A stretch of 64,000 nt of DNA from a bacterium (GTDB lineage Bacteria > UBA10199 > 2-02-FULL-50-16 > JAJFLM01): assembly GCA_965216315.1 (NCBI GenBank), contig CBDCFN010000016.1:992001-1056000 (forward strand). Reading direction: 5' to 3'. Below the pieces are notes generated by a model that worked only from the letters and a program-made list of their open reading frames with translations, searched no databases and was not told where the DNA came from. Positions 1 to 56,271 of this stretch are shown piece after piece (the stretch's first letter is position 1; each line of letters starts with the position of its first letter). The position numbers were made by a program, and so were the translations under genes.

Positions 1-345
1 GGGGAGTTGGAGTGCAGCGTAAGCTTCCAGGTGTCCCGCAATGCTGGCGACGGCGGCTTGATTATGTCTGAGTTCAAGCAGATGCTGGCGGCCGCGCTGC
101 AAGGTTTGAGCTGGCTCTTCGCCTGAGGAGGCCTGTTCGATCAGTTGGTCGACGGTCTCCATGTCAGTGGTGAGTCCCGCCAAGGCGTAGGAGCCGGCAA
201 GATCTTGGAAGCTCAAGGTTAAGGCGGCAGAAGTTTGATGCTGCGTGGCATTGCGGATCCAGTGATTTACATTGCTGGTATGCAATGGACCTGTGGCCGC
301 AAGAATAGGCGCAAGTGGGACCGATAATGTGAATATGCCCGACAC
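1..345 (-). CDS. Hypothetical orphan protein, 3' end runs off window (MSGIFTLSVPLAPILAATGPLHTS...)
   Basis: Hand translation: frame open from GTG at 345 to the window edge; preceded by the RCAAC-N14-GYCGATA motif. Confidence 0.6.
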   Translation of the reverse strand, partial: MSGIFTLSVPLAPILAATGPLHTSNVNHWIRNATQHQTSAALTLSFQDLAGSYALAGLTTDMETVDQLIEQASSGEEPAQTLQRGRQHLLELRHNQAAVASIAGHLEAYAALQLP

Positions 346-352
346 AGCTCAA

Positions 353-379
353 CTATCGACAATCCCTGGAAAAAGTTGC
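353..379 (-). promoter_or_regulatory. Putative alternative-sigma promoter GCAAC-N14-GTCGATAG
   Basis: One of six copies with the same spacing; 7 nt from the GTG start. Confidence 0.6.
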
Positions 380-460
380 ACAAAAGATATGCCGCACTGC
401 GTTATCATGGGTGGAGACTGGCGCGAAGCAACTTCTGATTGAGCTGACCGAAAGGAGGCC

Positions 461-1870
461 ATGCAACTTGCGTCGCTGCCGATCCACCAGCTCCATGGCC
501 TTCTCGTGGGGTATCAGATCAGTGCCGTTGATCTTACCCAGGAATGTCTCGCCCAAATTGAGGCCTTTGACGATGAGGTGAATGCCTTCATCAGCGTGAT
601 GCCGGAGCAGGCCATTCAGGCCGCGGTGGCTGCGGAACATCGCTTGTTGGATAGAGATCGCGTCACCCCCCTGACGGGAATTCCCATTGCTATCAAGGAT
701 AATATTTTCACAGTCGGGACGCCGACCAGTTGTGCGTCCCGCTATTTTGCCGGCCATCGGGCGGACTATGATGCCAGCGTGGTCCGCCGTCTCCAAGCCG
801 CGGGCGCCGTCATTATTGGCAAGACGAATATGGATGAATTTGCAATGGGTTCTTGGGCGACGACATCTTTCTATGGTCCCACCCGCAATCCATGGGATTT
901 GCAACGTTTGCCCGGCGGCAGTTCCGGTGGCAGCGCTGCGGCGGTTGCGGCGCACATGGCCGTGGCGGCATTGGGAACGGATACCGGGGGGTCCGTGCGT
1001 CAACCCGCTTCTTTGTGTGGTCTCGTCGGACTCCGTCCCACCCATGGCATTATTAGTAATCATGGACTCGTTCACTCGGTAGCGTCCCTTGATACTATTG
1101 GACCCATGACGCGTGAGGTGATGGACTGTGCCTATTTATTGAGTATTCTTATCGGCGAGGATGCTGCCGATCCTGCCGCGCGGCCTCTGGCGCGCGTCGA
1201 CCCTGATTTTCTAAGCGCCGGTATCAAAGGACTTCGCATCGGCGTGCCCCAGGAGCTGATGGAGACGCTGGAGAGCGATATTGATGGCGCGCTGGCAACG
1301 GCTCTGAATGAATTGTTGAGACTTGGGGCAAAGGTTCAAGCCGTATCGATCCCGAAAATCGAGACGGCCTTGGCGACCTACAATGTACTGGCTGCGGCTG
1401 GGGCCGCCGAGACGTTTAAGACAATTGACTTCGAGGGGGCGGGGCTGGGTGAGGAAGTGACGCGCCGGATTCTGGCCGGGGTGCGTTATTTAACGGGTGA
1501 TCAACAGGCCCGATTAGCAGAGGCGCGGCGGGAACAGTCGTCCCTTAAAAGGGCCTTCCAGCGGATTTTTAAGCGCGGTGTTGATATATTATTTGCGCCG
1601 ACTTCCCCCATAACCGCCATTCGACTCGATGAAATTGCCGATTACGACCCGGAACGCTTACACCTTTCCGATATGATGGTGGTCCCGGCAGCGTTGGCCG
1701 GCTTGCCGGCCTTGTCGCTGCCTGCGGGTTTTTCCACTGATGGCCTTCCCATCGGGATGCAGCTCATTGGTCCCGCCTTGTCGGATCAATGGCTCTTGCG
1801 CGTCGCTTATGCCTATGAGCAAAACACCGACTGGCATCGACGCCGGCCACCGCACTTAAGTGATCATTAA
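461..1870 (+). CDS. Amidase signature family protein, GatA-like
   Basis: IKDNI, GKTNMDEFAMGS, PGGSSGGS, LGTDTGGSVRQPAS motifs; AGGAGG SD; no gatC/gatB adjacent. Confidence 0.85.
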   Translation: MQLASLPIHQLHGLLVGYQISAVDLTQECLAQIEAFDDEVNAFISVMPEQAIQAAVAAEHRLLDRDRVTPLTGIPIAIKDNIFTVGTPTSCASRYFAGHRADYDASVVRRLQAAGAVIIGKTNMDEFAMGSWATTSFYGPTRNPWDLQRLPGGSSGGSAAAVAAHMAVAALGTDTGGSVRQPASLCGLVGLRPTHGIISNHGLVHSVASLDTIGPMTREVMDCAYLLSILIGEDAADPAARPLARVDPDFLSAGIKGLRIGVPQELMETLESDIDGALATALNELLRLGAKVQAVSIPKIETALATYNVLAAAGAAETFKTIDFEGAGLGEEVTRRILAGVRYLTGDQQARLAEARREQSSLKRAFQRIFKRGVDILFAPTSPITAIRLDEIADYDPERLHLSDMMVVPAALAGLPALSLPAGFSTDGLPIGMQLIGPALSDQWLLRVAYAYEQNTDWHRRRPPHLSDH

Positions 1871-1881
1871 TGGGGTTGAAG

Positions 1882-2451
1882 TTATTTATTTTTCGCCGCT
1901 TGCGCGACGGCATACGCTTTCGCTGATTTTTTCACCTTGGCGATTTCATCATAAAGAGTGCGTTCTGCAGATTGATGTTGTTTGAACAGCTGAATAAGTT
2001 TTGCGTGCATCGCCTTGCCCTGGGCGCAGTCGTCATTTTTGTACTGTCCCTGTAAATAATAGGCGCTGGCTTTTTGCGCCAACGGAACAAGTTCTTCATT
2101 GACCTTGGCAAAGACGGCGGCGGCTGTCTCGAGCGTAGGGAAAGGCAGTTTGTTGGCAGCCCCCAGTTCGGCGGCCCCATTACATTTGGCGATGCTGTCG
2201 TGGTAGAGCGGATAGAGTCCGTAGACAACATATCTCTCCTGACAGGTCGGGCCTGTCTCCGGATCGACCCAGGAAAGATAGCGCTCATAGCTCTCATGGG
2301 TGCGTGGAACGGCCTTTTCGAGGCAGGTCGCGTAGCGCTCGATTTCGTTGCTAAAATCAGGTTCAGCAAACGGATTGGGTTTTTTATCGGCACACTGAAT
2401 TAGAGACAGACATAAAGTGCTTAAGATAAGCAGCCTTGATAAAGTTTTCAT
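1882..2451 (-). CDS. Putative lipoprotein, YiiG/DUF3829-like
   Basis: Signal peptide ending in Cys (LIQC); RYLSWVD..GPT..ERYVVYGLY and YY.Q..YKNDD.A.GK..H resemble YiiG; GAGGAGG SD before ATG 2451. Confidence 0.7.
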   Translation of the reverse strand: MKTLSRLLILSTLCLSLIQCADKKPNPFAEPDFSNEIERYATCLEKAVPRTHESYERYLSWVDPETGPTCQERYVVYGLYPLYHDSIAKCNGAAELGAANKLPFPTLETAAAVFAKVNEELVPLAQKASAYYLQGQYKNDDCAQGKAMHAKLIQLFKQHQSAERTLYDEIAKVKKSAKAYAVAQAAKNK

Positions 2452-2486
2452 AATGACCTCCTCAGTAGTCAACGTCGATCGAGAGA

Positions 2487-3821
2487 CTAGTCAGGAAGGT
2501 CCGGAATCGCAAGTTCTATGCCCAATTTCTGCTTGGCATGTTTGACGAGTAAGGGAAGCATCGGTCGTGCATCAGGACTGACTCGTGCCCAGTATGCCTT
2601 GCCAAGAGGGGTTCCGCGCCGGTACTCATCACAGAGCCATTTGATGAGATAGACACTATACGCAAAATTAAGTTGCAGGTTCTCATACTCCTTTTTGTCG
2701 AACATAATTCTTAATTCCGCATCCGCAAATTCAAAACAAGTTATGGCGACCATCCAATTATGGAGGCGTTCATTGAGCTCCGTGATGTGCCTCTGTGTAG
2801 AATTGAGAATGGCCGGCATTAATGAGAATTGGCGGTAGTGTTGGTTCATTTCGTTGCGTAATAGGGTGTGGGCGCGATCCCAGCTTGGGGGATGATGGTC
2901 CTCGAATAAATAACCCCAGCCCTGGTAGCCAGGATCCATGGAGAAGCGGACACGAAAAACCGCCTGCCCTTTGTGGCCTTGATGGCCGAGGGCTAGCAGG
3001 AAACGCTTACCGAGTGAGCCGTGACCGTCAGCTCGGAACTCGAGTAGCTCCCAGGCATGCTGGATTTTTTCGATTCTGTCTTGATCGAAAAGATCGAGTT
3101 TAACATCGATAGAAATTAAGTATTCCTTAAATTGAGCGAGGACTTCGGTGCGATCTCTTTCACGTGCAAAATCAAAGCCGAGTCGAGGGAAGACGTAACA
3201 ACCCGCCTTAGTGACGGGCAGTTCCAGGGCATCCAGCCCCAAGCGCTGGAGAAAGGCGATCTCACGTTGGGTGCGCCGACGGCCGATACCCTGACCCTGG
3301 AGTTGATCGTTGGTAATAATGAAACCGTCTCCTTGAGCGATCCATGCTTCGCCGAGCGCTGTTTTTGCCGGAATCTTACGCGCGGAAAAACCGATTTCTT
3401 CATGGTCACTACTTGTTTCGACAAAGGCGCGGATATAGAGGCTGGTTTCACCGATGAATTCCAGTTCGAGGCGTCCGAGTTGAAAGCCCTCGACGTCGAG
3501 GTAAAAGGCGGCGGATAATTCCCGAATGGTCAAGGTGCGCCCGAAGAGCTGCGGGCTCTTTTCATCGAGTGCGTGTGCGGTGCCAGCGCCGGCTGGTTTT
3601 TCAAAGATCTCCGGTATTATGCCGCGAAAGAAGGTGACCTGTCGGATAGGTTCATCGCTGGGGCCTAGATCAGCCAAGAAGCGCCTGATTGGCTCGGATC
3701 CGAAGCGGTTCCACAATTGCTCCCGGGTGGAGTCGCTCAGGTCGGAACTCAGTAGGGTCGTACTGGCCAGGACGGGTGCGCTAATGGTTGTCAGGCTTGA
3801 GCAGGTCGACAAGTGCCACAT
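2487..3821 (-). CDS. Orphan protein with GNAT-like acetyl-CoA-binding motif
   Basis: 444-aa ORF; QLQGQGIGRR and GCYVFPRLGF resemble GNAT motifs A/B; S/T-rich N-terminus. Confidence 0.65.
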   Translation of the reverse strand: MWHLSTCSSLTTISAPVLASTTLLSSDLSDSTREQLWNRFGSEPIRRFLADLGPSDEPIRQVTFFRGIIPEIFEKPAGAGTAHALDEKSPQLFGRTLTIRELSAAFYLDVEGFQLGRLELEFIGETSLYIRAFVETSSDHEEIGFSARKIPAKTALGEAWIAQGDGFIITNDQLQGQGIGRRRTQREIAFLQRLGLDALELPVTKAGCYVFPRLGFDFARERDRTEVLAQFKEYLISIDVKLDLFDQDRIEKIQHAWELLEFRADGHGSLGKRFLLALGHQGHKGQAVFRVRFSMDPGYQGWGYLFEDHHPPSWDRAHTLLRNEMNQHYRQFSLMPAILNSTQRHITELNERLHNWMVAITCFEFADAELRIMFDKKEYENLQLNFAYSVYLIKWLCDEYRRGTPLGKAYWARVSPDARPMLPLLVKHAKQKLGIELAIPDLPD

Positions 3822-3828
3822 GGGCCCC

Positions 3829-3855
3829 TAATCGCAGGATAGCCAGCAATGTTGC
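3829..3855 (-). promoter_or_regulatory. Putative alternative-sigma promoter GCAAC-N14-TGCGATTA
   Basis: Same spacing as other copies; 7 nt from ATG 3821. Confidence 0.5.
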
Positions 3856-3878
3856 GAGAAAAATAACGCGCAGCGTTA

Positions 3879-4778: not shown

Positions 4779-4946
4779 GGGAATTCCGCTACCTCATGCC
4801 GGGAAACGAAGTCAATCAGGGTATCAGGTTGGAATTCACTTGACCCGGGAGAAGATGTTGCTTATCAACTCTAGCTCCATTATACTTTGCGAAATCAAGG
4901 GCTTATTAAAAAATATTGAACAGCACTCAGCTAAGGGGGTTTTGTC

Positions 4947-5482: not shown

Positions 5483-5521
5483 AAACGGCACCTGGCTGAC
5501 GCTGGGTGCCGTTTTTTTTTA
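5483..5521 (+). terminator. Rho-independent terminator
   Basis: AAACGGCACC...GGTGCCGTTT stem followed by a T run. Confidence 0.8.
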
Positions 5522-6436
5522 TTCTTTTGGGATGGTGCGAGCCAGATAGGATCGAAATGCTTTGGTCGCGAGTGGATGAAGCAACGGTGAAACCTCCGCC
5601 AAGATGGCATAGGACATGTCCTGAAAAGCCTGTAGATAGACCCTATATTCAGGGCTTTCCAGGCCAACCAGGCTTTTTAGTCGTGCCAGTTCGGACAGGC
5701 CAGGTCCCCAAATGTAAGCGACCAACCCACTAATGGTAAAATCCTTGGTTTCGATATCGATCGCATGATTCATCATCGTGTTGAGTACATCATGCAGAAC
5801 AGGGTCTGAGGTATATGCTTTCATGGCATCGTAACATTCATAGGCGAACTGGCGCGCGTATTTGTGGAGGCGGCCGATACAGTAGCCGTGAAAGATGTCG
5901 TGAATAGCAAAAATAAAAGGATCGACTATGACGCGGGCGTCACCGAGCCACAGGGGCGCCTCGGCCATGCCAATGGGATGTTGATTTTCTCGATGCAGGG
6001 CATTGATGTCATCTCGCTCAAGAATGCCTGACGAGCGGACCCACTGAATCGGTACTTGGTCGCGCCCATCGAACGCAATGGCCGCCGAGAGTTCTAGAAA
6101 CGAAAGGGAGGGGACATGCCAGATGACGGCGTCATCTTGGCGCCTGACGAGCAGAAGTCGATGACGCAACATGTTTTCAAGTCGCTTGAACAACCAGTTG
6201 ACGTCAAAATCGCTGGTTTCTCTCAAGGAATCGCGTGGCATCGTCAATTGAAGTACCTGCAAAGCAGCGCTGTCGTCTGGGTGCTGCTGAGAGAGTCGTG
6301 ATTCAATCGTGGTGACGAACTGAGGATCACCTAAAGGGCCCGTGTCAGCTAAGACGGAGATGCTTGCATGGGCTATGCGGGTGGAAAAATTGACGGCGAG
6401 TTGGGTCCAGGCCAGGTTCATATTTTGGCTCAGCAT
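5519..6436 (-). CDS. Orphan hypothetical protein
   Basis: 305-aa ORF with an HDIFHGY His motif; preceded by the promoter motif. Confidence 0.65.
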   Translation of the reverse strand: MLSQNMNLAWTQLAVNFSTRIAHASISVLADTGPLGDPQFVTTIESRLSQQHPDDSAALQVLQLTMPRDSLRETSDFDVNWLFKRLENMLRHRLLLVRRQDDAVIWHVPSLSFLELSAAIAFDGRDQVPIQWVRSSGILERDDINALHRENQHPIGMAEAPLWLGDARVIVDPFIFAIHDIFHGYCIGRLHKYARQFAYECYDAMKAYTSDPVLHDVLNTMMNHAIDIETKDFTISGLVAYIWGPGLSELARLKSLVGLESPEYRVYLQAFQDMSYAILAEVSPLLHPLATKAFRSYLARTIPKE

Positions 6437-6443: not shown

Positions 6444-6470
6444 TCATCGGCGCTTGTGGGGATCTGTTGT
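6444..6470 (-). promoter_or_regulatory. Putative alternative-sigma promoter ACAAC-N14-GCCGATGA
   Basis: Same spacing; 7 nt from ATG 6436. Confidence 0.6.
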
Positions 6471-10415: not shown

Positions 10416-11384
10416 TCAATGTTCTATCTTGTCCAAGAGCGCATCGATCTGTGCGAGCCTGGCTTCAAGTCTGTTATATGTCTTGGAGAGGTACAGCCGT
10501 GCTTCATAGCCACGATCGGTTTGGGTGGCCACGTCGCGGGCGATTTCTTGAAACTCGCGCGCGTCGATAAGCCTAATGAGTTCAGCAAAGGCGGCACCAT
10601 AAAGATCCCGGTAATAAACAAAGCGCAGCTCACGAGGGGCCATGGCGTCCAATCCGCCCAAGAATTGGCGGGTCGCAGCGACAATGGAGTTGAGATAAAT
10701 CGAAATGACTCTGACTTGCTCGGGGCTATTCCGCGGCTGTGCGGCGTTGATATCATCAAAGTAAGTTTGGCCTTCATCGATCAGTCCCCGCAATAATGCA
10801 ATGAAGGTTCGGGCAAATAGCGCGCCAAAGGCATTCACTTCAGGATTATCTTTCAGGCGATAATATTGATTTAAACTATAGACCGTCATTGTTGGCGAGT
10901 CCTTGAGTTGATGTGGCTGCTGAGTAGCCGCCAAGGCAACTCTCTTGCGTGTGGGCGGTGTACGTAAAGTCGCTACAAAGACATCAAGCGCCCCGCGCCA
11001 TGAGGGCTGGTCCAGGTCAAGCAGGGCATGCAGTTCATTTAACTGACCGAAGGGGCGATACCGGTAAGACCATTCCAGCGCAAAGCGCCGGCTGAAACGA
11101 CTTGCTAGCAGGACCGCCCCGACTCCCAAAACTATAATTGTTGCGGGCCCCAAAGAATCATCAGTACAGCCGGCACTGCCGGCTGCCAATGCGGTTAGTG
11201 TTGTGCGCGTGGCTACCGATGAACGTATCTCGTGGAGAGAACAATCAGGGAGAATTGTAGCGTGAGGTTCTATTTGTGTTGAGTCAACACGAGTAGAGTT
11301 TTCCGAAAGGGAGGTATTAGAACGTATGGCTGCCAAGAGTAATCCTGGTTGGCAGAAACTTAGTATGTGAGATGAAGCGATCAT
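10416..11384 (-). CDS. Orphan protein with one predicted TM segment
   Basis: 322-aa ORF; hydrophobic ATIIVLGVGAVLLA; S/T-rich N-terminus. Confidence 0.6.
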   Translation of the reverse strand: MIASSHILSFCQPGLLLAAIRSNTSLSENSTRVDSTQIEPHATILPDCSLHEIRSSVATRTTLTALAAGSAGCTDDSLGPATIIVLGVGAVLLASRFSRRFALEWSYRYRPFGQLNELHALLDLDQPSWRGALDVFVATLRTPPTRKRVALAATQQPHQLKDSPTMTVYSLNQYYRLKDNPEVNAFGALFARTFIALLRGLIDEGQTYFDDINAAQPRNSPEQVRVISIYLNSIVAATRQFLGGLDAMAPRELRFVYYRDLYGAAFAELIRLIDAREFQEIARDVATQTDRGYEARLYLSKTYNRLEARLAQIDALLDKIEH

Positions 11385-11441: not shown

Positions 11442-11468
11442 TCTTCGGCTAGGTGTCCAGCAGGTTGC
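11442..11468 (-). promoter_or_regulatory. Putative alternative-sigma promoter GCAAC-N14-GCCGAAGA
   Basis: Same spacing; upstream of orphan 10416-11384. Confidence 0.55.
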
Positions 11469-13643: not shown

Positions 13644-16600
13644 TCATTTAGCTCTCTTAATCATCTTATAAAAATACCCCGGGCTGACACCGAGTTGTTC
13701 GATGGCTTGATAGGGTTTGTCATTGCAGGTCTTGAGTGCGGCTTGAAATATTTCCGGGATATAGTCGGCGATTTTCTTACCCTTGGAATAGACAAAGGGG
13801 CTTGAGAATAAGGGATTATTTTTGTCGTTCAAGTCCCATTCTTTTACCTTCTTATACATGGTCGTGGCAGCAAGGCCGAGGGAGGTTGCGGTTGCCTTGA
13901 TCTGGTAGTTATGTTCCGCCAGAGCCTTCGCGATAATAACACGTTCATAATCCGCCCACTGCAGCTGCGAGTCGTAGTGATTGTGGGTATCAATTCTAAC
14001 CGTTGAGGTGGGGCTCGGAGCTACAGATGTCGTGCCGGCAGGTCGTACGTCTGACGCTGGGTTTTGCATGAAACGACTTAGTGGATGCGTCCTTGGAATA
14101 GCTGTCGTATCAATGACGCCTTTTTCGGACAAGGCGATCGTGACTTTGATCAGATTTTCGAGTTCGCGAATATTTCCCGGCCAGGGATATTCAATTAAAG
14201 TCTTCATTAGAGCGGAGACGACGCGTACTTTCTTATCGCCTTTCTCTAAGGAGATAAAATGGTCGATGAGAAGGGGAATATCCTCGGGGCGATCACGGAG
14301 TGCGGGGAGATCCAGTCGGATTTGGCAGAGTCGGTAAAAGAGGTCTTCGCGGAACTGCTCCTGTCTGACAAGCTCTTCCAGGTCTTGGTTGGAGGCAGAG
14401 ACGATACGGATATCGGCTTGCAAAACTTTTGTGTCGCCTACCCGCCGGAATTCACCTTCTTGAAGTAGGCGCAGGAGTTTGACTTGAAGCATTAAATCCA
14501 ACTCTGCAATTTCATCTAAGAAAAGGGTGCCGCCGTGAGCCTCCTCGACAAGGCCTTTTTTGTCGCGGGAGGCGCCGGTAAATGCGCCGGCCTTCACACC
14601 AAACAATTCACTTTCCATGAGGTTCTCCGGAATCGCACCGCAATTGACAGCGACGAAGGACTTATTGCTTCGCGTGCTGTGTCGATGCAACGCTCTGGCG
14701 ATGAGTTCTTTACCCGTGCCGGATTCTCCGTGGATGTAGACTGCGAGATCTGTGTCGGCAATTTTATCCATCAGCGAAAACAGCTCTTTCATCGCTTTGG
14801 AACGTCCGATAATGCCGTCGACTTCATAGTGAGATAGAGATTGGAGTTCAGGAAGCAGTGCCTGGTAGTGTTCGAGTTTACCGCTCATCTCGACGATTTG
14901 CGCCTCAAGATTGCTATGCGAGGCTTTTACTTGCGATAAAGTTTTGGCGTTAGCGATGGCAATGCCTGCCTGGTCGGCAAAAGCACTCATGACTTCCATG
15001 TTGGATTCATCAAAGGCGCCTTTTTGGAGTCGGTTCTCCAGATAAAGGGCCCCGATTGTTTGCTGCTTGGATCGTATTGGCAGACAGAGTACGGCTTTAA
15101 TGTCGAGCCCCGTAATCGACGATTCCTCGGAAAAACGCTCGTCGACCTTCGCATCCTGGGTCGTGATCCATTGCCCCGTCGACATCGCGCGTTCTGCGAT
15201 CGTTCGACTGAATTCGGCGATATCTTCCGAATTTTTCAAATTAAGCGAGGCCTTTATTTCTAATTTTCCATCCTCTGAATGAAGCAGAATGAGGCCGCTT
15301 TCAGCGCTCGAAAATTCCAAGGCGTATTGAAGCACTGTTTTGAGCACAAAGTCCAAATCCGACTCGGCGTTAATAAATTGATTGATCTTGAGAATGGAGG
15401 CGTAGGGATTGCTCATGTTAGGCTCCCGGGGTTGAGGCGTCGGCTCAGGTTGCATGATTTTCATCTTGAGCTGGTTGGCTTTTCTTTCCTCGTCGGGTGA
15501 CAACGATAGGGAACTCAATGCCGAGTAAGTTTCTTCGGCGTCGAGATAGCGATTTTGGTCGAGATGCAGCTCAGTGAGGGCGTGGAGAGCCCAAAACTTG
15601 AGCGACTCCACGTGATTTTTAGCCAGTTCATGGCACTCATTCAGGTAATTAAGACTGGCTTGCCATTCTTGTTGACGCCTGGCCATGTCACCGAGCTCGA
15701 GCAGAGCACGGCAGAGTGAATGCCATTCAAACGCGGATTTTAAGGGACGGTTGCGCAAGAGACTGACGGCGAGCTCCAGGCGCATCCGTGCTTTGGCGAA
15801 CTCCTGCTGTTGTGAGTATAAGGTGCCGAGATTGACGAGCAATGCCGTTTGACCGATCAAATCTCCAATGCGCTCACAGAGGGCCAGACCTCGTTCATAA
15901 TATGCGGTACTCTCCTCTGCATTTTCAGTAATATGATAGACATTGCCGAGACCGTTATAGGCGCGCAGTAACAATTCAGAGTTTTTTATTTGTTGGGCAT
16001 AGCGCGCGGCGTTTTTGTAATGACTGATAGCTTGATCATATTCTTCGAGAACGAGGCAGGCCTCGGCGATATTGTAGTGCCCTCTCGCGATGAGTAGATT
16101 GTCCTCGATTTTTTCATAAAAGAGGAGGTCTTCTTCGAATTGGCCTAAGGCTTTTTCATATTCACGCAAGGAAAAGAAGGCCATTCCCAAGTCGTTGTTG
16201 GTAACGCGTCGTTTCTCATCGTCAGACAATTCATTCTTCCATTGCAAGTAGGTTTCCCGAAAAATTTTAATCGCTTCTTCATAGTTTCCTTCTTGTAATA
16301 GAACACGTGCCTGAAAATTTTTAAGGTTCAATTGCTTGGTGAGCGGAGCCTCCGAGCTAGTGATAAGACTTTGTGCCTTATCGAATGAGGCTTGGGCCTT
16401 TTCTGTGTTGCCCAGTTTTAGGGATAACGCCCCAATACGGATGATCGTATCGAGCTGTTCTTGTAAGGCCTCTGTTTTTTTGAGCTTCTTAAGTGATTCA
16501 CTGACTTCATCGCACGCGGCTTCGGCGGCTGCATAATCAAGCGCTAATAAGCTCGCTTCAGACAGTTTGAGTAAATACTCAATACGTTCCCGCTTAGCCG

Positions 16601-18632
16601 TCTTGGGAATCCGGGAGAGTATATGTCGAAATATCGAAATGGCCTGGATTGATTCCGCCTTTTCTAGATGTGCATTGCCCCATTGAGATGCCGTGCTGAT
16701 GGCAAGCTCCAAATTGCTGCCGCGCAATTCATGATAGGCGCGCACACCTGAATTTTCTTCATAGAGAGTGGCCAATCGATCATGCAATTGCGATCGTTCT
16801 TTTTCAGTGATTTGAGCGTAAAGAATTTCGGCAATGGAGGTGTTTTGAATGTGGTAGGTGCCGTGTTCTGTTTCTCTCTCGATGAGGTTGTGGCGCCTAA
16901 GATCTTCTAACGAAGTGGATATATCTTTTTTATCTACGAGTTTCTGCAGCTGGCTTACTGTCAGCGGTTCTTGGGTGCATGCCAGCCATTTAAGGATTTT
17001 TTGTCCTTCAGTTGACGCCCGCTTGGCGCGTGCCAGCAGTAGTTCACTCAATGCCTCGGATATCTGGACGTCACTGAAGTCAACACCGATATCCTCAAAG
17101 ACGCTTGCTTGCCAGCGTCCGTTTTCATCGAAAAGGGCTCCCGTTTCAATCAGTGAACGGAGCACTTCCGTAACGAGGAGGACATTGCCTTCGGTTCGGT
17201 TCCAGAGTTCATCCAAAAAAGTGTCGGGGGGATCCTCGACACCGGTTAGCGACGTGACATAAGCGGCGACTTCACGTCGGGTGAAGGCCTTTAGTTGAAT
17301 GGGAATCGCATCCGGTTCCGAGAGTATTTCGCTGATTGTCTCAGAGAGTTCATCAGGGGTATCGCACGCCGCGATGATAAGAATGCCGTGTTCTCGTCTC
17401 GTATCTGACTTCAATCGCAAGAGCAGGGCGCTGAGCGTTCGCTGTATTTCCGAGAGCTCACATAACTGGTTGATGTCATCGATAAAGAGGGCCAGTGGTC
17501 TTTTGTCATTCAGGGCCTCTTCGCGGACCTGTTCGCACCAGTGGAGTAATGTGGCGACAGAGTTCTCTTCCGGTTGCCAGCCCGGAATGCCGCTTAGTTC
17601 GCATTCATAACGCATCTCTTTAAGGAAGCGTGTCTTGCCGGTCCCGCGGTCCCCCGAGACGAGGATCAAGCCATGCTTGCGTGTCTTGCGTTCAAAGAGT
17701 TGGCGGCGTTGCTCTCTAAAGAGCCGTTTTTCCTTGATGCGCCCGATAAAGCGCCCTTCGTCCGGGAGGTAAGATAAGAGCGTTTCACGGGTTTCAAGCG
17801 GTATTTTATCAGGAGAATGGGCGCTGATATCTCGAAGAATTTCATCGGCACTTTGATAACGATCGCCGCGGTTCTTCTCCAGCATCCTTAAAAGGATGCG
17901 ATCTAAGAAGGAGGGGATCTCTTTATTAAAGGAGGAGGGGAGCTCCGGTGTAAACGAAAGATGCTTTCTAAAGGTTGCTTGGATGCCTTTGTCACGAAAA
18001 GGATTCTTGCGGGTTAGGCAGTAATAAAAAAGAACGCCGAGTGAATAGATATCCGCGCGCCCATCGGGCCGTTGATGCCGAATGATTTCCGGCGCCATAT
18101 AAGAGGGGGTGCCGACGAGTTGCTCTCCGGGACTCATCGAGGCCAGTCCAAAATCAATGAGTTTTACCTGCCTGGGTGCTTGCTGGGTTACGAGCAGGTT
18201 GGCGGCTTTAACATCTAAATGAAAGATTCGGTACGAATGCAGGTAATTAAATGCGCGTAAAGCCTGAACAAATAGTTCCAAGGCCTCAAGAGGCGAGGTG
18301 TGTTCGGTGGCAGCGTAGAGGTTGACGCCGGCAACGTATTCGGAAGTGAAGTAGAATTGTTGTTTGTCGGGATCAAAACCAAAATCGAGAATGCCGGCGA
18401 TATGAGGGTGGTGGAGCTCTTTAAGAATAGCGAATTCATTTTTGAAGTCGGCAATGGCTTCCGCTTCGTCGGCGAGCGGTTGACCTCGGTTGAGCAGCTT
18501 GAGAGCGACATTTTGGCCATGGAAGCGCGTGAGGTAGACTTGGCTGAAGCTGCCTTGCCCCAGTGGTTCCTCGATCCGATAGTGACCGTCCACAATAGCG
18601 CCGGTAGCGAGTGAATCAGTAAATAGGCTCAT
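13644..18632 (-). CDS. Ser/Thr kinase - P-loop ATPase - TPR - GAF - sigma54 AAA+ activator - tandem HTH
   Basis: LGQGSFSQV/VALK/HLDVKAAN/DFG/GTPSYMAPE; GDRGTGKT; TPR helices; GAF; GESGTGKE, GAFTGA, LFLDEI, WPGNIREL; two HTH-like segments. Confidence 0.92.
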   Translation of the reverse strand: MSLFTDSLATGAIVDGHYRIEEPLGQGSFSQVYLTRFHGQNVALKLLNRGQPLADEAEAIADFKNEFAILKELHHPHIAGILDFGFDPDKQQFYFTSEYVAGVNLYAATEHTSPLEALELFVQALRAFNYLHSYRIFHLDVKAANLLVTQQAPRQVKLIDFGLASMSPGEQLVGTPSYMAPEIIRHQRPDGRADIYSLGVLFYYCLTRKNPFRDKGIQATFRKHLSFTPELPSSFNKEIPSFLDRILLRMLEKNRGDRYQSADEILRDISAHSPDKIPLETRETLLSYLPDEGRFIGRIKEKRLFREQRRQLFERKTRKHGLILVSGDRGTGKTRFLKEMRYECELSGIPGWQPEENSVATLLHWCEQVREEALNDKRPLALFIDDINQLCELSEIQRTLSALLLRLKSDTRREHGILIIAACDTPDELSETISEILSEPDAIPIQLKAFTRREVAAYVTSLTGVEDPPDTFLDELWNRTEGNVLLVTEVLRSLIETGALFDENGRWQASVFEDIGVDFSDVQISEALSELLLARAKRASTEGQKILKWLACTQEPLTVSQLQKLVDKKDISTSLEDLRRHNLIERETEHGTYHIQNTSIAEILYAQITEKERSQLHDRLATLYEENSGVRAYHELRGSNLELAISTASQWGNAHLEKAESIQAISIFRHILSRIPKTAKRERIEYLLKLSEASLLALDYAAAEAACDEVSESLKKLKKTEALQEQLDTIIRIGALSLKLGNTEKAQASFDKAQSLITSSEAPLTKQLNLKNFQARVLLQEGNYEEAIKIFRETYLQWKNELSDDEKRRVTNNDLGMAFFSLREYEKALGQFEEDLLFYEKIEDNLLIARGHYNIAEACLVLEEYDQAISHYKNAARYAQQIKNSELLLRAYNGLGNVYHITENAEESTAYYERGLALCERIGDLIGQTALLVNLGTLYSQQQEFAKARMRLELAVSLLRNRPLKSAFEWHSLCRALLELGDMARRQQEWQASLNYLNECHELAKNHVESLKFWALHALTELHLDQNRYLDAEETYSALSSLSLSPDEERKANQLKMKIMQPEPTPQPREPNMSNPYASILKINQFINAESDLDFVLKTVLQYALEFSSAESGLILLHSEDGKLEIKASLNLKNSEDIAEFSRTIAERAMSTGQWITTQDAKVDERFSEESSITGLDIKAVLCLPIRSKQQTIGALYLENRLQKGAFDESNMEVMSAFADQAGIAIANAKTLSQVKASHSNLEAQIVEMSGKLEHYQALLPELQSLSHYEVDGIIGRSKAMKELFSLMDKIADTDLAVYIHGESGTGKELIARALHRHSTRSNKSFVAVNCGAIPENLMESELFGVKAGAFTGASRDKKGLVEEAHGGTLFLDEIAELDLMLQVKLLRLLQEGEFRRVGDTKVLQADIRIVSASNQDLEELVRQEQFREDLFYRLCQIRLDLPALRDRPEDIPLLIDHFISLEKGDKKVRVVSALMKTLIEYPWPGNIRELENLIKVTIALSEKGVIDTTAIPRTHPLSRFMQNPASDVRPAGTTSVAPSPTSTVRIDTHNHYDSQLQWADYERVIIAKALAEHNYQIKATATSLGLAATTMYKKVKEWDLNDKNNPLFSSPFVYSKGKKIADYIPEIFQAALKTCNDKPYQAIEQLGVSPGYFYKMIKRAK

Positions 18633-28082: not shown

Positions 28083-28188
28083 CTGACCTCCCTTTATTAC
28101 TGGATCAGCGGGGAAAATACAATGAAATCAGTTGAGTGGCTCTCAACGAGCAACTGGGCGGACTCTCCAGACCGATAAGCTTATTGCG

Positions 28189-40894: not shown

Positions 40895-40921
40895 ACAACA
40901 ATCCCTAAAATTCGCCGATAA
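40895..40921 (+). promoter_or_regulatory. Putative alternative-sigma promoter ACAAC-N14-GCCGATAA
   Basis: Exact sigma28-type -10 element; same spacing as other copies. Confidence 0.65.
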
Positions 40922-40939: not shown

Positions 40940-41239
40940 ATGAAACGTATCATCTTTCTATGGGGATTCTTGGGGTTCTTCGGAGGCTTCGGCACCCTCT
41001 ATGCGGGCGCAAGTTCCTTGGCGGTGGAGAGCCAACAGCACGCGCGGCAACTCGTCTTAGTCGACCCGAGCGGATGGCACCTTGGCGCTATGGCAGCCAC
41101 GATCTTTCGTGAGGACCCCGAGGACAATAATGATCCCATCGTTTTAGCTCGGGATCCCAAGGCGACGGGTTGGCAACCGGCCGTGTGGTGTGCCCCGGGC
41201 AAGGCCGCTATTGGGATGAAGGCGGTGATTTCATTTTGA
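40940..41239 (+). CDS. Small secreted hypothetical protein (possibly truncated)
   Basis: Signal-peptide-like N-terminus; GAGGT SD. Confidence 0.5.
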   Translation: MKRIIFLWGFLGFFGGFGTLYAGASSLAVESQQHARQLVLVDPSGWHLGAMAATIFREDPEDNNDPIVLARDPKATGWQPAVWCAPGKAAIGMKAVISF

Positions 41240-47597: not shown

Positions 47598-47669
47598 TCC
47601 GGGGTAGCTCAGCGGCAGAGTAGGTGGCTGTTAACCACTTGGTCGTGGGTTCGAATCCCACCCCCGGAG
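47598..47669 (+). tRNA. tRNA-Asn (GTT), CCA not encoded
   Basis: Acceptor stem TCCGGGG/CCCCGGA, D arm, anticodon loop CTGTTAA, T arm GTGGGTTCGAATCCCAC. Confidence 0.97.
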
Positions 47670-47870
47670 CATAAAAATCCGTTGGACCCTTCTGGGTCCG
47701 GCGGATTTTTTTTGTTTCGTGGTGGGTGAGACCCCCAACTGTGTTGGAAGGTTCGACGAGCGCTTCGCCGAAGGCGAAGACTTACGAAGTGCAATCGTCA
47801 TAAAGACGATTGCCTCCCTCCGAAGCGGGGAGTCCGCCAGCGGCGGACGAGCAAATCCCACCCCCGGAGC
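47649..47870 (+). repeat. 222-bp structured tRNA-tail unit, copy 1 (identical to 61632-61853)
   Basis: Direct comparison; six hairpins between two tRNA 3'-end copies. Confidence 0.9.
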
Positions 47871-48990
47871 AAATTATCCCCTCTAAGTCATTGTACTTGG
47901 AGGGGATTTTTTTAGGTCGTGACAAGTGGTCACCATTTGGTCGCCACATGGGCTGAACTGTTGCGTGTGACTCCGAAATAAATTCCTGACCGACGTTCAC
48001 GCCTCGATTGACCTTCTCGCGCCACTCACTCATCTGCTCAGGAATCATGTGCGTGTAGTGATCGGTAATGCCGCTGGTCTTTTGTCCGACCCATTCCATT
48101 AGTGTCTTCTTGTCGACACCGGCTTTTAGCATACGCGAAATGTACGTGTGCCGCAGCTGATGCAGGGTCCGTTCAAACTTGTGATCGGACTTGAAGGTAT
48201 ACCATTGATGTTCAAAGGCCTTACGGGTCCCGCTCAAAATGGATTCGCAGGGAATTGTCGGAATCAGTTCCATGATAACGTCGGGCAGCGGGACCACGCG
48301 GGCCCGATAGGTCTTGGTTGTTGCGCCCTCGACAGACTTGATCCGAACTACGCCCAGGCGCAGGTCAAAATCAGATTTTTTGAGCTGCGCTAGCTCGCCC
48401 ATCCGCATCCCCGTGTTGTAAAGCACAAGGCAGACACGTTTCACCTCTTCCTGCGCGTTGCGCATCACGAAGCGGAACTCTTCGTCCGTCCACGGAACTT
48501 GCTGGATCTTTGGTGTGTTGCGCGGCTTCTCGACGCCCTCAACGGGATTTTCAAAGGCAAAGCCATTGTCGATGGCCTTTTTGAACATGGTATTGAGGAT
48601 GCCTAAGTCATTGCGTACCGTCTTGGCCGAACGACCCAAAGCGCGCCGGTGGTTTCTAAAAGCGACCACATCCGCGCGGTCAATGTTGCAGACCAGCATG
48701 TCCTTGAAGAAAGAGACAAAGTTGGAACGGATCCGATAACAGGAACTACGCAGATAGCGCTCGGATTTTTCGCGGAAGTGATTCTCAATGAAAAGCTCAG
48801 CGTAGTCAGCGAAGGGAATCGGCTCGACGCTCTCCATGCCGGCGCGGCGGCGCCCCAGGTAGTCTTCCTTGAGCCGCAGAAACTCCTTGGCGTTCTGACG
48901 GTCCTTGAACGACTGCGTGTACCTAACGCCAGCCTCGCGCCAGTCGACGACCCAGCGCTTGCGATTTTTGCGATACCGAATCACGGCCAT
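47782..48990 (-). CDS. int: Tyrosine recombinase/integrase; ORF spans the att site
   Basis: TGMRMGEL, TKT, LHQLRHTY, TDHYTH catalytic motifs; arm-binding-like N-terminus. Confidence 0.93.
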   Translation of the reverse strand: MAVIRYRKNRKRWVVDWREAGVRYTQSFKDRQNAKEFLRLKEDYLGRRRAGMESVEPIPFADYAELFIENHFREKSERYLRSSCYRIRSNFVSFFKDMLVCNIDRADVVAFRNHRRALGRSAKTVRNDLGILNTMFKKAIDNGFAFENPVEGVEKPRNTPKIQQVPWTDEEFRFVMRNAQEEVKRVCLVLYNTGMRMGELAQLKKSDFDLRLGVVRIKSVEGATTKTYRARVVPLPDVIMELIPTIPCESILSGTRKAFEHQWYTFKSDHKFERTLHQLRHTYISRMLKAGVDKKTLMEWVGQKTSGITDHYTHMIPEQMSEWREKVNRGVNVGQEFISESHATVQPMWRPNGDHLSRPKKIPSKYNDLEGIICSGGGICSSAAGGLPASEGGNRLYDDCTS

Positions 48991-52230: not shown

Positions 52231-53307
52231 CTAGAGGCCCATTCTGCCATCAGGTGCAAAGGGTTTCTCTAGGTGTAAGTTCGAAAAGACTGTTTCTCTT
52301 GCTGATTCAAGAGTTTTTCCCAATGCATTTCCAACGATGTCTAACAACATTTGATCATGATGTAATCCAGTATTAATATGGTAACACCGATACAAATACC
52401 CAAAACCTAATCCTGGGATAAGATTCGCTTCAAGAAAATATGGAACTCCCTTTTCATCCATTTTAATGTCAATTCTTCCATATCCTCTGGCGCCTAAGGC
52501 CTTAAAAGAATCAATTGCGAGTTGTGATACAATATCTTTAATATGTTCATCTTCAATTTTTAACGTTAGTTCCATATCAGCAATTTTATCATCAAAGCCT
52601 AATATTCTGTCACCTTTCGCATTTGCTTGAGCCTGAAGTTCAATTGGGTAAACTTGGTAGGTCTCGTTTTGAAAGTCTTCCATAATTGCAACAGTATATT
52701 CTTTTCCACATAAATATTTTTCAACTAATGACCCTGTATTTTGATGGTCGAATATCGATTTTACTTTGCTTTCATACTCTAGATAATTGTGCACTAGTGA
52801 ATTAGAGTCTATCCCTCGTGAGTCTCCTTCAAAAATTGGTTTAATAAATAGCGGGTAGGATAGGTGGATATTATCTTCAGTAAGCTCATCGGGCTTTGTG
52901 ATAAAAAAAGTGGCCGTATTCAATCCACAACTCTTAATCTTTTCTTTAGCTTTGCTTTTATCAAATTCGAGTTCAATAGATTCTCTACTTGATCCCGTAT
53001 AGGCAATATTGTGTTTGTCTAAATATTCTGAAAACCAAAGTTTATTTGTAGCATATCTTTTTACGGTGTTCTCATCGAAACCCAAATATTTGATTCCTGA
53101 AATTACTAAATCAGGCTTGTGGCTTACCAACTCTTCTAAATCATCCATATTATGGATAATCGATACTCTCACTTTAGTATAATATTTGCTTAATGTTTCA
53201 TGAAGATTAAGTGACACTTTACTTGGCATTAGATTCAAACCCCCAATGGGAGTTGTGACTATTTCAATATAGTTTTCAATTTTCATTAATTTAACTTCAC
53301 CTAACAT
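52231..53307 (-). CDS. D-Ala-D-Ala ligase-like ATP-grasp protein
   Basis: YTGS, DKSKAK, PLFIKP, EKYL.GKEYTV, YGRIDIKMD, FLEANLIPGL; AT-rich. Confidence 0.8.
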   Translation of the reverse strand: MLGEVKLMKIENYIEIVTTPIGGLNLMPSKVSLNLHETLSKYYTKVRVSIIHNMDDLEELVSHKPDLVISGIKYLGFDENTVKRYATNKLWFSEYLDKHNIAYTGSSRESIELEFDKSKAKEKIKSCGLNTATFFITKPDELTEDNIHLSYPLFIKPIFEGDSRGIDSNSLVHNYLEYESKVKSIFDHQNTGSLVEKYLCGKEYTVAIMEDFQNETYQVYPIELQAQANAKGDRILGFDDKIADMELTLKIEDEHIKDIVSQLAIDSFKALGARGYGRIDIKMDEKGVPYFLEANLIPGLGFGYLYRCYHINTGLHHDQMLLDIVGNALGKTLESARETVFSNLHLEKPFAPDGRMGL

Positions 53308-53828
53308 TCACATTTAATTATCAAGGCAAATTGAATAAGATTCTCGGGAAGCGAGTCTTGACAAGAGTCGTGATAATGAGCCGTCACCCTATCACTAAAG
53401 AGTCAATATAACTAATTCATAATGGATTATTCTCTGTTCAGGGACGGCTCCATGAGACTAATGAGAGGTAATTATGGAGTATTTTGCTATTTAGCAGGGC
53501 CTAATTACTTGCGCCTAAAGACACAGGCCAACAAAACCTTCAGACGAAGGACCCAACATGAAACCCTACGGTCCTAAAATGCGACCCTTCTGCGTCCAGC
53601 AAGCGGCGAAAACCTAGTTTTTTCACCAAACTCATCTTGGCATGATCCTTGCTTGGTAATGCCTCATGGCATCGCAACCACGCTTCGCGATTCTCGAGTA
53701 GTTTCTCGAGTAGTTTTAAGACGGAGGAACCCAAAAGCCAAATAATTTCAGGTCCGTAGAATTCAACTTACAGAATCACATGTCATTTTGGGCCCTTCGT
53801 CTTAAGTTTTTTATTGTGCCCTATATAG

Positions 53829-54986
53829 TTAAGCCATTCTGCTTGTATATTGTTTTATCAAACCAATCCAAGCTGGACTGATGAGAAGAGTCGCAAAAAT
53901 TGTTGCTATGGTTGTTTGGTAAGCAAATTCGTTAATAATATTTGTCTGTAACCCAATTGCTGCCAAGACAAAACTGAATTCTCCAATTTGAGAAAGAAGT
54001 GCTCCAGCATACAGAGAATCCTTCACAGTTACTCTCAGTGATTTTAAAATGCCCGCATTAATAAATGTATTGGTTAGTAAACTAGCTAGCATGAGGGTGA
54101 GCACAATAAACCAGTTGTTAGCTAAAAATTGGAGGTCAACCGTCATCCCTATGGAAACAAAAAAAAGAGCAACGAATATGCCTCGAAATGATTCTAAGCT
54201 CTGCTGTATCGAATGTGTCTCCTTTGCTACTGAGACAATAATGCCTGCCAAAAAAGCACCTAAGGCGGCTGAAAGTCCAAACAGTCCAGTAATGAAAGCC
54301 ATTCCTAATCCTAAGAATAGGGCTATTAATGTTTGAATCTCTTGATATCGCTTTATATATTTAGAAAATGGAAGGGGAATATTTTTTTTCACAAGAAGCC
54401 ATATAAGTAGAGCCAAAATGAGTAGCGCCCCCATAATTTGTAGAGTAATATTGGTAACATTAAGCTGCCCCCCCCCCATTAAATTAATTGCAATGAGCAT
54501 GGGAATAAGCAGAAAATCTTGCACTAAAAGAATGCCTATTACATTTTGTCCTACAAAAGAGTTGGTCTCATTTCGATCCTTCAGCATTGTAATGATGACA
54601 GCCGTACTGCTAAGGCTAATCACAAAGCCAAGAAAAATAATTTGTGACATCGGCCAAGATAACCAAAAGCCCAGAGCCCATACACAGACGATGCTAATAA
54701 CTACTTGAAGGACTGTGCCTGCAATCATGATGCGCCAATTTTTGACCAAGCTGGGTAGAGAAATCTCAGCTCCTACAAAAAAGAGTAAAAATAATACACC
54801 GAAGGCACCAATACGATTAAGTAGCTCTGTATCTGTAACAAATTCGAGAACATAAGGGCCGAGCACAACTCCTGCAACCATATAGGCAACTACAAACGGT
54901 TGATTGAGTCTCTTCATTAGAAGCGCAATCACAATAACGACTAATACCGATGCGGCAAGGAGTGGAATACTAGGGTCCATGTCCAT
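53829..54986 (-). CDS. Cation:proton antiporter (CPA2, KefB-like membrane domain only)
   Basis: GVLFLLFFVGAE, SLSSTA, ILLVQD, LFFVSIGM, LSQIGEFSFVL. Confidence 0.9.
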   Translation of the reverse strand: MDMDPSIPLLAASVLVVIVIALLMKRLNQPFVVAYMVAGVVLGPYVLEFVTDTELLNRIGAFGVLFLLFFVGAEISLPSLVKNWRIMIAGTVLQVVISIVCVWALGFWLSWPMSQIIFLGFVISLSSTAVIITMLKDRNETNSFVGQNVIGILLVQDFLLIPMLIAINLMGGGQLNVTNITLQIMGALLILALLIWLLVKKNIPLPFSKYIKRYQEIQTLIALFLGLGMAFITGLFGLSAALGAFLAGIIVSVAKETHSIQQSLESFRGIFVALFFVSIGMTVDLQFLANNWFIVLTLMLASLLTNTFINAGILKSLRVTVKDSLYAGALLSQIGEFSFVLAAIGLQTNIINEFAYQTTIATIFATLLISPAWIGLIKQYTSRMA

Positions 54987-55016
54987 AAATTATTCCTCTT
55001 TTATCTACTAATGGTC

Positions 55017-55598
55017 TTATTTGGATAAGCCGGCCGTCAACGCCCAGCGCAATGCATCCTTGGTCTTCATATCGACGGGTTGTATCTTCGATTTTGGCAC
55101 GTAAACGGTAAAGCCCCCCACTTGATAACTCCATGGCAGAAACACAGCCACCGTATCATCATGGTTTATCCCGTGCGGTGCGTCGCTTAAATCATGTCGG
55201 GTGACAACACCTAAGAAGCGGGTAGAGGCATCACCAATGGTTACCATAACGACAATCATATTATCGGATTGTTGTTTACCGCTTACGTATTGCACGACTT
55301 GTTTGAGGGCCCCATAGATCTCATTGACCAGTGGAATTTTCTCTACAAGGTACTCCGACCATCCCCAAAGTTTTCGCACGAACCATGCTTTCAGTAGCAA
55401 ACCAACAAGAAAGATCAGACCCAGGCCGAGAATGACACCCATACCGGGATGATACCAGCCGGTGGGGAGGAGCCAGCGCAGCGCAGCCTGGAATATGGAT
55501 TCAAGCCCTCGCATCAACCATACGAAAAGATAAATGGTAATAGCCAGTGGCAGGACCGCCAACAGGCCTTTCAGGAATATTGAATAAATCGATTTCAT
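55017..55598 (-). CDS. DUF502 membrane protein
   Basis: GLLAVLPLAITIY, KIPLVNEIY, VAVFLPWSYQVGG. Confidence 0.88.
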   Translation of the reverse strand: MKSIYSIFLKGLLAVLPLAITIYLFVWLMRGLESIFQAALRWLLPTGWYHPGMGVILGLGLIFLVGLLLKAWFVRKLWGWSEYLVEKIPLVNEIYGALKQVVQYVSGKQQSDNMIVVMVTIGDASTRFLGVVTRHDLSDAPHGINHDDTVAVFLPWSYQVGGFTVYVPKSKIQPVDMKTKDALRWALTAGLSK

Positions 55599-56044
55599 GA
55601 AGCATTCTCCAAAATAAATATTTCAATGAGCCTTTCGCTTGATTTCTGGTATTTGCATTTACTATACGATTTTGGCAAGATTTTATAGAAACTATGTCTC
55701 TCACAACCCCGCACAAAACTCTCAGTAAAGCACTGCATCTCCATCATCTGAGAAACCCGTATAGTCCCTTCAACATTCAAAAACGGATCCGCCTTGGCAA
55801 TCTCAACAGCCGCCTCAATGCTGTCCGCTTTAACAACGGCAAACCCTTTCATCGCATTAGGATCATTCTCGTCTTGAACATCACTTGAAGTCACAATTTT
55901 TGTGCTCATCAAAGGGGTTCCTGGATTGACGACCTGGTCGCCAAGACCTTCTGCCCAAGCTTTCCATTGACCCATCTGGGCCATGCCCTCTTCTTTTGAA
56001 CTCGGCTGCCTTCCGCCGTAATAGGCGATCATAAAATTGGCCAT
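55595..56044 (-). CDS. YciI-like protein with probable read-through C-terminal extension
   Basis: AAGGAG SD before ATG 56044; WKAW...G.PL, GFAVVKADSIEAAVEIAKADP. Confidence 0.75.
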   Translation of the reverse strand: MANFMIAYYGGRQPSSKEEGMAQMGQWKAWAEGLGDQVVNPGTPLMSTKIVTSSDVQDENDPNAMKGFAVVKADSIEAAVEIAKADPFLNVEGTIRVSQMMEMQCFTESFVRGCERHSFYKILPKSYSKCKYQKSSERLIEIFILENAS

Positions 56045-56094
56045 ACTGTTTCTCCTTGTGATGAGGATTATGCAGACGGGGGACAAAAAACACA

Positions 56095-56121
56095 GCAACT
56101 TTCTGTAAAATGGGTCGATAA
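56095..56121 (+). promoter_or_regulatory. Putative alternative-sigma promoter GCAAC-N14-GTCGATAA
   Basis: Same spacing; ATG 7 nt later opens a 25-codon ORF (56129-56206). Confidence 0.55.
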
Positions 56122-56271
56122 GTGTATAATGCTTGTACTTCGAGCAGGCCGCCTGTATGGACGGGCCGGTATTAACGTTAGAATCATTTCCCAAGCGCTT
56201 TTTTAGAGTGTCCCTTCTGTAGTTTTCGGTCCACCCCAAAAATAAACTCTTGTGAAAACAAAGGGACACAC

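Follow-up and report, generated by a model that had tools for sequence, protein, structure and literature searches.

The window analysed here is a 64,000-nucleotide (nt) stretch (C16:992001-1056000) of the 2.96 Mb, 98%-complete genome of a bacterium from the UBA10199-like phylum (the source genome, G000). Several orphan genes in the window lie behind a two-part DNA element resembling a sigma-28 promoter, in which RCAAC is followed after 14 nt by a CGATAA-type box. A sequence-only reading had listed eight such sites, and all eight were recovered where it had placed them. At the six sites listed with a 14-nt spacer, RCAAC and the spacing were confirmed, but the exact pattern RCAAC-N14-GYCGATAA was found only at 40895 and 56095, both on the forward strand; at 353, 3829, 6444 and 11442 the downstream box carries one to three changes (GTCGATAG, TGCGATTA, GCCGATGA and GCCGAAGA). 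Genes were called with a simple caller built for the analysis, and gene starts and counts are approximate. The sites and their target genes are collected in Table 1.

The exact pattern gave no match to the window in 100 shuffles, and a relaxed pattern matched nine times in the window at the 14-nt spacing versus zero to three times at 13 other spacings. Genome-wide, the exact pattern was found 28 times with N14, five times with N15 and eight times with N16, and zero to three times at 13 other spacings. Of the 80 strict RCAAC-N16-CGATAA sites, 64 were intergenic and faced a gene on the same strand; two were intergenic and otherwise oriented and 14 lay inside called genes, in a genome of which 8.7% is intergenic. 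When only CGA was required in the downstream box, 194 sites were intergenic and in sense orientation and 11 were not, compared with 6 vs. 7 and 4 vs. 4 at two control spacings. A position weight matrix (PWM) scan returned 195 (N14), 30 (N15), 28 (N16) and nine (N17) intergenic sense sites, and zero to three at N10-13 and N18-20; the matrix was trained on N14 sites, which makes the N14 figure circular and leaves the other spacings unaffected.

The consensus is RCAACttt-N11-gcCGATAA. In the matrix of about 200 sites, C-G-A of the downstream box stand at 0.96-0.99 and T-A-A at 0.70-0.73, and the sigma-28 -10 core CGATAA is present. The upstream 5-mer, the T-run and the 14 nt to the downstream box agree in layout with E. 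coli sigma-28 sites. Upstream boxes TAAA, TCAA and CAAG produced no peak at any spacing, and RCAAC stands in place of the -35 TAAAG. Each of the 73 phylum genomes, which are kin and not independent samples, contained 18-105 matches to the strict motif compared with 0-7 to the reversed pattern. Judged by its spacing, position and orientation, the repeated motif is a real promoter of sigma-28 geometry ahead of about 250 genes in the source genome.

The claim that a start codon lies 7 nt behind the box at four sites was correct for 345 (GTG), 3821, 6436 and 56129, although the last opens only 25 codons. In sigma-28 complexes, CGATAA spans -13 to -8 (10.1101/2020.01.02.893370), which puts +1 on a start codon that follows the box after 7 nt. 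At the leaderless-type sites, +1 would thus probably fall on the ATG itself. For 71 of 248 first genes there is an in-frame ATG 6-10 nt past the box, with a peak of 23 at 7 nt, versus 3.5 per position further on. A Shine-Dalgarno (SD) word accompanies eight of 79 near-box starts, compared with 100 of 169 leadered starts. Of 30 such ATGs in a distant family, 27 begin reading frames of at least 60 codons, and 15 lie at 7 nt. A sigma-70-type leaderless peak was not seen among 923 other first genes. The targets had been described as often leaderless; about three in ten (~30%) look leaderless or nearly so.

The sigma-70 family is represented in the source genome by five genes, with a single group-3 candidate of divergent FliA/WhiG type at C16:350583-351410, inside a gene cluster for type III secretion (T3SS). 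The others are, by sequence, presumably RpoD, an RpoH-like factor and two extracytoplasmic function (ECF) factors. The candidate scored 133.5 bits with TIGR02479 (curated cut-off 189.6), still its best match of all models, and its closest solved structures are WhiG and FliA. Such a second-tier TIGR02479 match is present in 71 of the 73 genomes, and the flagellin-bearing genomes (10/73) are exactly those with an additional FliA above the cut-off. By this distribution, the T3SS-encoded sigma and the flagellar FliA carried by the 10 flagellated relatives are two separate factors. No match to flagellin, rod proteins or FlgM was found in the 98%-complete source genome. Upstream of the flagellin genes of the flagellated relatives, the RCAAC motif was found in none of 11 regions and a TAAA-type site within 400 nt in only one of 11, so this control is uninformative about FliA.

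Inspection of region 4 showed that the recognition helix is changed, reading SKSW[TV] / KSW[TV][SC]R in 120 of 120 homologues where its FliA counterpart reads ESR[IV]SQ (ESRVSQ). In the candidate, E218 is replaced by K and Q223 by R. By the sigma-70 contacts, positions 218 and 223 presumably lie opposite the box's last and first base, and the two replacements may fit the upstream-box changes G to C and T to G. D81 and R91, both with a role in sigma-28, are kept. Furthermore, 17 of the 18 genomes behind the sigma loci have the motif, and the motif-free exception has only a weak partial sigma match, outside the T3SS. It is very likely, as judged from these sequence comparisons, that the T3SS-encoded sigma reads the RCAAC motif.

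The sigma gene is preceded in most relatives by a fast-evolving gene of 105-125 amino acids (aa; C16:350010-350369) for which no likeness to FlgM was found by sequence. Its predicted complex with sigma scored 0.59, the best control 0.02; the prediction runs had at least 33% of contacts in common and a partner predicted local distance difference test (pLDDT) value of at least 44. Among pairs used to gauge the score, 116 of 157 solved and two of 215 mismatched ones reached the mark; of those that reached it, 18 solved pairs and both mismatches scored at most 0.60. The gene product is a possible FlgM-like partner, a weak lead that may reflect likeness to solved sigma complexes. Elsewhere on the contig (C16:91474-94470), a fusion of helicase and sigma-70 region 4 domain is encoded behind a site, with its ATG 8 nt downstream.

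The sigma gene lies between an SctJ-like gene and a series of FliG-like, SctL, SctN, SctO, FliK-, FliM-, FliN- and FliO-like, SctR, SctS and SctT genes. The FliG-like gene follows it directly (44/48 related loci), and the order is kept in relatives. SctV, encoded upstream of sigma, scored 806 bits with the non-flagellar model (692-bit cut-off) and fell under the FlhA cut-off. SctN exceeded the SctN and FliI cut-offs alike, and SctR, S and T were best matches under cut-off. The cluster also holds three SycD-like TPR proteins, and a gene with NPTH, SctU/FlhB-like by pattern only, adjoins a Ser/Thr kinase far from the cluster (C16:805005-806090).

A C-terminal profile of a small needle-like gene product (20 homologues aligned) had its best match to a solved structure in a 43-residue chain belonging to a needle-chaperone complex (E 2.6e-4); PrgI and MxiH ranked next, at E 0.1-0.8 amid unrelated matches. 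In the Atlas, the protein led to Myxococcota hypothetical proteins (0.95) and to a cluster that is 11% T3SS_needle_F (0.91). The gene after sigma weakly matched the rod protein MxiI (E 0.027). Four tip-like paralogues beside the SycD-like genes, without a strongly hydrophobic segment, gave Atlas leads below 0.9 to LcrV, EspA and IpaD clusters. In the relatives' loci, the 16-nt form of the promoter predominates (59 vs. 3-13 at other spacings). A 15- or 16-nt site stands ahead of the needle-like gene in 25 of the 25 loci holding the preceding gene, and a 16-nt-form site ahead of sigma's own operon in 26 of 33. The cluster appears to be that of a non-flagellar T3SS and includes, on these weak matches, needle-like and rod-like genes.

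The spacer length divides the targets. The 15-16-nt sites lie ahead of apparatus and exported proteins, namely the needle-like and tip-like genes, the sigma operon and exported lipoproteins, while the 14-nt sites lie ahead of a set referred to below as cargo. Some 70-95 proteins, mostly orphans with divergent copies of housekeeping enzymes among them, share an N-terminal tag in which 12-18 uncharged S/T/A/L/G residues lead into [LVA]-L-A-[AS]-[ASG]. A tag matrix kept 69 of 248 promoter genes (65/69 in cross-validation), comprising 66 of 193 N14 genes vs. three of 55 N15/16 genes. Among all genes, the tag score was reached by 74 of 236 promoter genes vs. 29 of 2136 others, and many of these 29 either have a missed site or lie downstream of a target gene. 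The first 17 residues after Met are uncharged in 102 of 248 promoter genes vs. 120 of 2215 others. The tag codons vary synonymously, and the signal is therefore in the peptide. Sec-like signals show the reverse distribution, with 13 of 26 in the 16-nt class vs. 12 of 193 in the 14-nt class. The larger tagged set of 95 contains a few ordinary signal peptides.

In a genome of the same family, seven of 20 open reading frames (ORFs) carried the tag. A phylum-wide tag was considered and rejected: a combined DNA pattern matched 31, 27 and 12 times in the three genomes of the family, five other genomes had 12-21 matches and the remaining 82 of 90 had 0-9, shifted and swapped controls in G000 matched 9 and 14 of 98, and direct translation in G061 showed no tag. 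At loci L169-L198 of G066, a genome from another family, the targets often have apolar, G/A/S/L-rich N-termini that fall below the tag score; these are perhaps a family-specific variant of the tag, judging by composition.

At 1e-6, Pfam names 17 of 82 tagged proteins and 28 of 98 other promoter genes, in comparison with 43 of 60 control first genes, and leaves 65 of the 82 tagged proteins without a family. The samples were drawn from 95 tagged proteins (cut at 1300 aa), 179 other promoter genes and 241 controls, one of which turned out to be tagged. The expected enrichment of orphans is thus present, and the proposal of a divergent FliA/WhiG-type sigma with a dispersed orphan-gene programme is supported, with the sigma in the T3SS cluster and the targets rich in orphans.

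The named tagged proteins include a diacylglycerol kinase, phosphofructokinase, malic enzyme, acyl-CoA (CoA, coenzyme A) synthetase, an acyltransferase, a single-chain carboxylase-biotin ligase fusion, a synthase-like giant, Ser/Thr kinases, cyclase-STAND proteins and a hybrid histidine kinase. The tagged enzymes require ATP or CoA. For most of the named proteins, a divergent paralogue exists that is untagged and has no site; no such paralogue turned up for the synthase-like giant, the helicase, the dioxygenase or the HAD protein. The fusion of acetyl/acyl-CoA carboxylase and biotin-protein ligase (C16:1632121-1639887) recurs in only four near homologues among the 120 listed, and these too carry N-terminal extensions. 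A tagged protein of 3854 aa (C15:370007-381571) contains acyltransferase, MaoC and short-chain dehydrogenase domains, and no ketosynthase match was found in it. A search for an ATP/ADP translocase gave no match in G000 and weak partial matches in 11 of the 73 genomes. Targets bearing RelA/SpoT, RtcB and sigma region 4 are present, a weak hint that the target cell may be bacterial. Additionally, about 15 orphan genes are arrayed at C16:2163562-2205756, each with a strong site, among them two paralogue families without the tag.

We propose that the sigma is a sigma-28 paralogue that would have been retained when a flagellar export machine turned into a non-flagellar T3SS, and that it would activate the late substrates of an injection machine as FliA does the late flagellar ones. 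The 15-16-nt-spacer promoters would drive the needle-like and tip-like genes, the sigma operon and the exported lipoproteins, and the 14-nt-spacer promoters the cargo, often via leaderless mRNAs. The uncharged tag of 15-20 residues would be the export address in the source genome's family, and the cargo would act in the cytoplasm of another cell. It is reasonably probable, from gene content and promoter distribution, that the regulon is a T3SS cargo regulon in which the sigma couples late-substrate expression to the machine and the tag addresses the cargo. It likewise seems likely, on balance, that the tag directs export and that the cargo is injected. More tentative, and rather doubtful as a whole, is a phylum-wide, flagellum-derived, needle-bearing injector with its own sigma-28 and a FlgM-like checkpoint, which in the source genome's family would deliver about 95 tagged cargo proteins, including a self-contained lipid-making set, into prey or host.

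Several observations weigh against this proposal. Behind the promoters of other families, the tag was found in none of 11 (G023) and none of 27 (G061) targets, and in G003 and G066 none was above the score mark. The needle-like and tip-like proteins, which would necessarily be T3SS substrates, lack it, and tagged giants of 2588 and 3854 aa are present. The sigma falls below the TIGR02479 cut-off; of the 11 E. coli -10 contacts it keeps R58, T69, R74 and R84, R98 is K and six others are changed, and both -35 phosphate contacts of the E. coli sigma are changed. The needle, rod and tip assignments rest on weak matches; the needle-like and rod-like proteins had no Pfam match, and the needle-like model, one helix, had none by Foldseek. 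No secretin was found in the T3SS locus, the genome's two secretin matches lying elsewhere. A eukaryotic origin of the tagged carboxylase was rejected, as it is of the bacterial single-chain type. The regulon also includes ordinary genes (helicases, riboflavin and biotin enzymes, an M23 peptidase), which are what a life-stage regulon would hold.

The possibility was considered that the same sigma and promoter serve a programme tied to one stage of life (an attack, dormant or infectious form), in the manner of Bdellovibrio or Chlamydia, with the tagged proteins staying in the bacterium and the tag acting as a degradation, localisation or compartment-loading signal of stage-specific isoenzymes. 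This is the main rival and is not exclusive with the cargo reading; as the full explanation we consider it unlikely, with some weight nonetheless. Of 140 attack-phase promoters in Bdellovibrio, FliA controls 92, many of them non-flagellar (PMC3627812). Besides the housekeeping-like genes, Sec-type proteins belong to the regulon, the T3SS-like substrates in the cluster are untagged, and the tagged carboxylase, synthase-like protein, malic enzyme, phosphofructokinase and acyltransferase could form a lipid storage route inside the cell. However, the family-less tagged proteins lie in many cases in paralogue arrays, like effector repertoires, and the sigma stays within the T3SS cluster phylum-wide. 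The carboxylase moreover has its own biotin ligase, which would be needless beside that of the cell.

An atypical Sec signal peptide, cut by signal peptidase I at [LVA]-L-A|[AS], with exit by Sec and a Gsp type II system, is improbable as an account of the tag. Signal peptidase I sites have small residues at -3/-1; the end of the tag, at residues 14-20, agrees with this rule, and a cluster that holds a secretin and pilin-like genes is located just ahead of the window, a crude regular expression finding no Flp pilin pattern. However, charged residues make up about 1% of the first 20 positions, partly by selection, which leaves no basic n-region, a hydrophobicity test was passed by 8% of the leaderless group vs. 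24% of other genes, and the cargo kinases, cyclases and CoA enzymes need cytoplasm. Slightly less probable still is another reader of the motif, such as one of the two ECF factors, RpoH or a transcription factor, with the T3SS-encoded sigma confined to local targets. The different targets of the 14-nt and 16-nt classes could mean two readers. Yet CGATAA is the sigma-28 -10 core, the motif and the T3SS-encoded sigma co-occur across the phylum, and the ATG peak at +1 is what sigma-28 would give.

To our knowledge, the UBA10199-like phylum has no cultured member and no described lifestyle, and the promoter offers a direct route to a list of its likely secreted repertoire. The sigma is also a natural test of the region 4.2 residues that set the -35 sequence. 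As a rule, the export signals of T3SSs vary too much to be read; if the proposal is true, a fixed tag on dozens of unrelated proteins is a signal testable by simple fusions, and the regulon would be the first substrate list, with a sequence-defined export signal, for an early-branching T3SS. The cluster also bears on the substrates of Myxococcus-like T3SSs that lack a secretin, and on whether such systems are really without a needle.

The target of the 56095 site is likely the DEAD-box helicase rather than the 25-codon ORF (Table 1). Other features of the window include a 1662-aa kinase-AAA-TPR-GAF-sigma54 activator fusion (13644-18632, reverse strand), a tRNA-Asn followed by a phage-type integrase (47598-48990), beyond which an AbiEi-like pair, a Fic protein and two genes for BrnT toxins suggest an island, and a fatty acid desaturase split between two overlapping frames (58257-59457, reverse strand).

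Table 1. Promoter-like sites of the window and the genes associated with them.
Position	Strand	Feature	PWM score
1..345	-	5' part of 354-aa orphan that runs beyond the window; uncharged N-terminus, ILAAT tag	
353..379	-	Promoter-like site, 14-nt spacer, GTG 7 nt downstream	17.9
428..454	+	Promoter-like site, not in the sequence-only reading; ATG 6 nt downstream	18.6
461..1870	+	Amidase; 43% identity to second GatA-like paralogue without such a site	
2487..3821	-	444-aa orphan, N-terminal tag VLAST; one of five paralogous genes	
3829..3855	-	Promoter-like site, 14-nt spacer, ATG 7 nt downstream	19.2
5519..6436	-	305-aa orphan; residues 1-19 uncharged, no clear tag	
6444..6470	-	Promoter-like site, 14-nt spacer, ATG 7 nt downstream	16.9
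10416..11384	-	322-aa orphan; uncharged N-terminus from first ATG, tag-like end LLAAI	
11442..11468	-	Promoter-like site, 14-nt spacer; 57-nt leader with SD-like word	
28150..28178	+	Weaker site, 16-nt spacer; then 42-codon ORF and RNA methyltransferase	15.7
40895..40921	+	Exact site; 18-nt leader with GAGG, then 99-aa orphan (40940-41239)	
56095..56121	+	Exact site overlapped by TATAAT; 25-codon ORF at 56129; DEAD-box helicase 150 nt downstream	
56272..57537	+	RhlE-like DEAD-box helicase; 79%-identical paralogue elsewhere also behind a site	
61967..61995	+	16-nt-spacer match; downstream box within terminator-like hairpin (61978-62011); doubtful promoter	

A search of mostly open literature found the promoter, sigma and tag nowhere described; Myxococcus and Bdellovibrio promoter tables could bear on this. 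E. coli FliA sites such as that of tar read TAAAG-N14-GCCGATAA (PMC4183435 Table 2). The sites described here share with E. coli sigma-28 class 3 promoters the downstream box GCCGATAA, the T-run after the 5-mer, the 14-nt spacing and, by prediction, +1 at 7 nt behind the box. They differ in having RCAAC for TAAAG, a different sigma helix and a source genome without flagellin or rod matches. TAAAC and TCAAC sites also occur in E. coli (PMC4183435), and the fixed change is therefore mainly the first base and the two Cs. The FliA attack-phase regulon of Bdellovibrio bacteriovorus (PMC3627812, PMC5430801) is likewise a large, non-flagellar and often uncharacterised sigma-28 regulon in related bacteria. 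There, however, the flagellar FliA itself acts at TTAAG-N16-CCGATA, whereas here a separate T3SS paralogue coexists with FliA in 10 of the 73 genomes. In Chlamydia, sigma-28 is also kept in a non-flagellated T3SS bacterium for late genes (PMC4893696), but a canonical TAAAGTTT upstream box is used for the late-gene set, with no link to a tag.

The T3SS of Myxococcus xanthus (Myxo T3SS or T3SS*; PMC3459982, PMC12075869) has a similar export apparatus of the early-branching type and a locus without secretin, and the needle-like gene resembles Myxococcota hypothetical proteins, as a taxon lead from the Atlas only. The M. xanthus system is needed for prey lysis (PMC12075869), and the literature search found no sigma regulon or substrates described for it. 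It has been described without needle and translocon, in contrast to the needle-, rod- and tip-like genes found here as weak matches. The export signals of early flagellar subunits (PMC8983047), compared by description only, likewise combine a hydrophobic extreme N-terminus with a second short motif at a set distance, but the tag ends at residues 14-20 and stands on non-structural proteins. The HrpL/hrp box and HrpX/PIP box systems (PMC13436205) similarly have a T3SS-tied regulator and one effector-predictive motif on apparatus and effector genes; HrpL, however, belongs to the ECF sigmas and HrpX to the AraC proteins, while here a group-3 sigma of flagellar descent would act on leaderless-type targets with a peptide tag. 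By analogy, the sigma would resemble FliA in how it works and HrpL in marking effectors, and its score, helix and targets set it apart from FliA proper.

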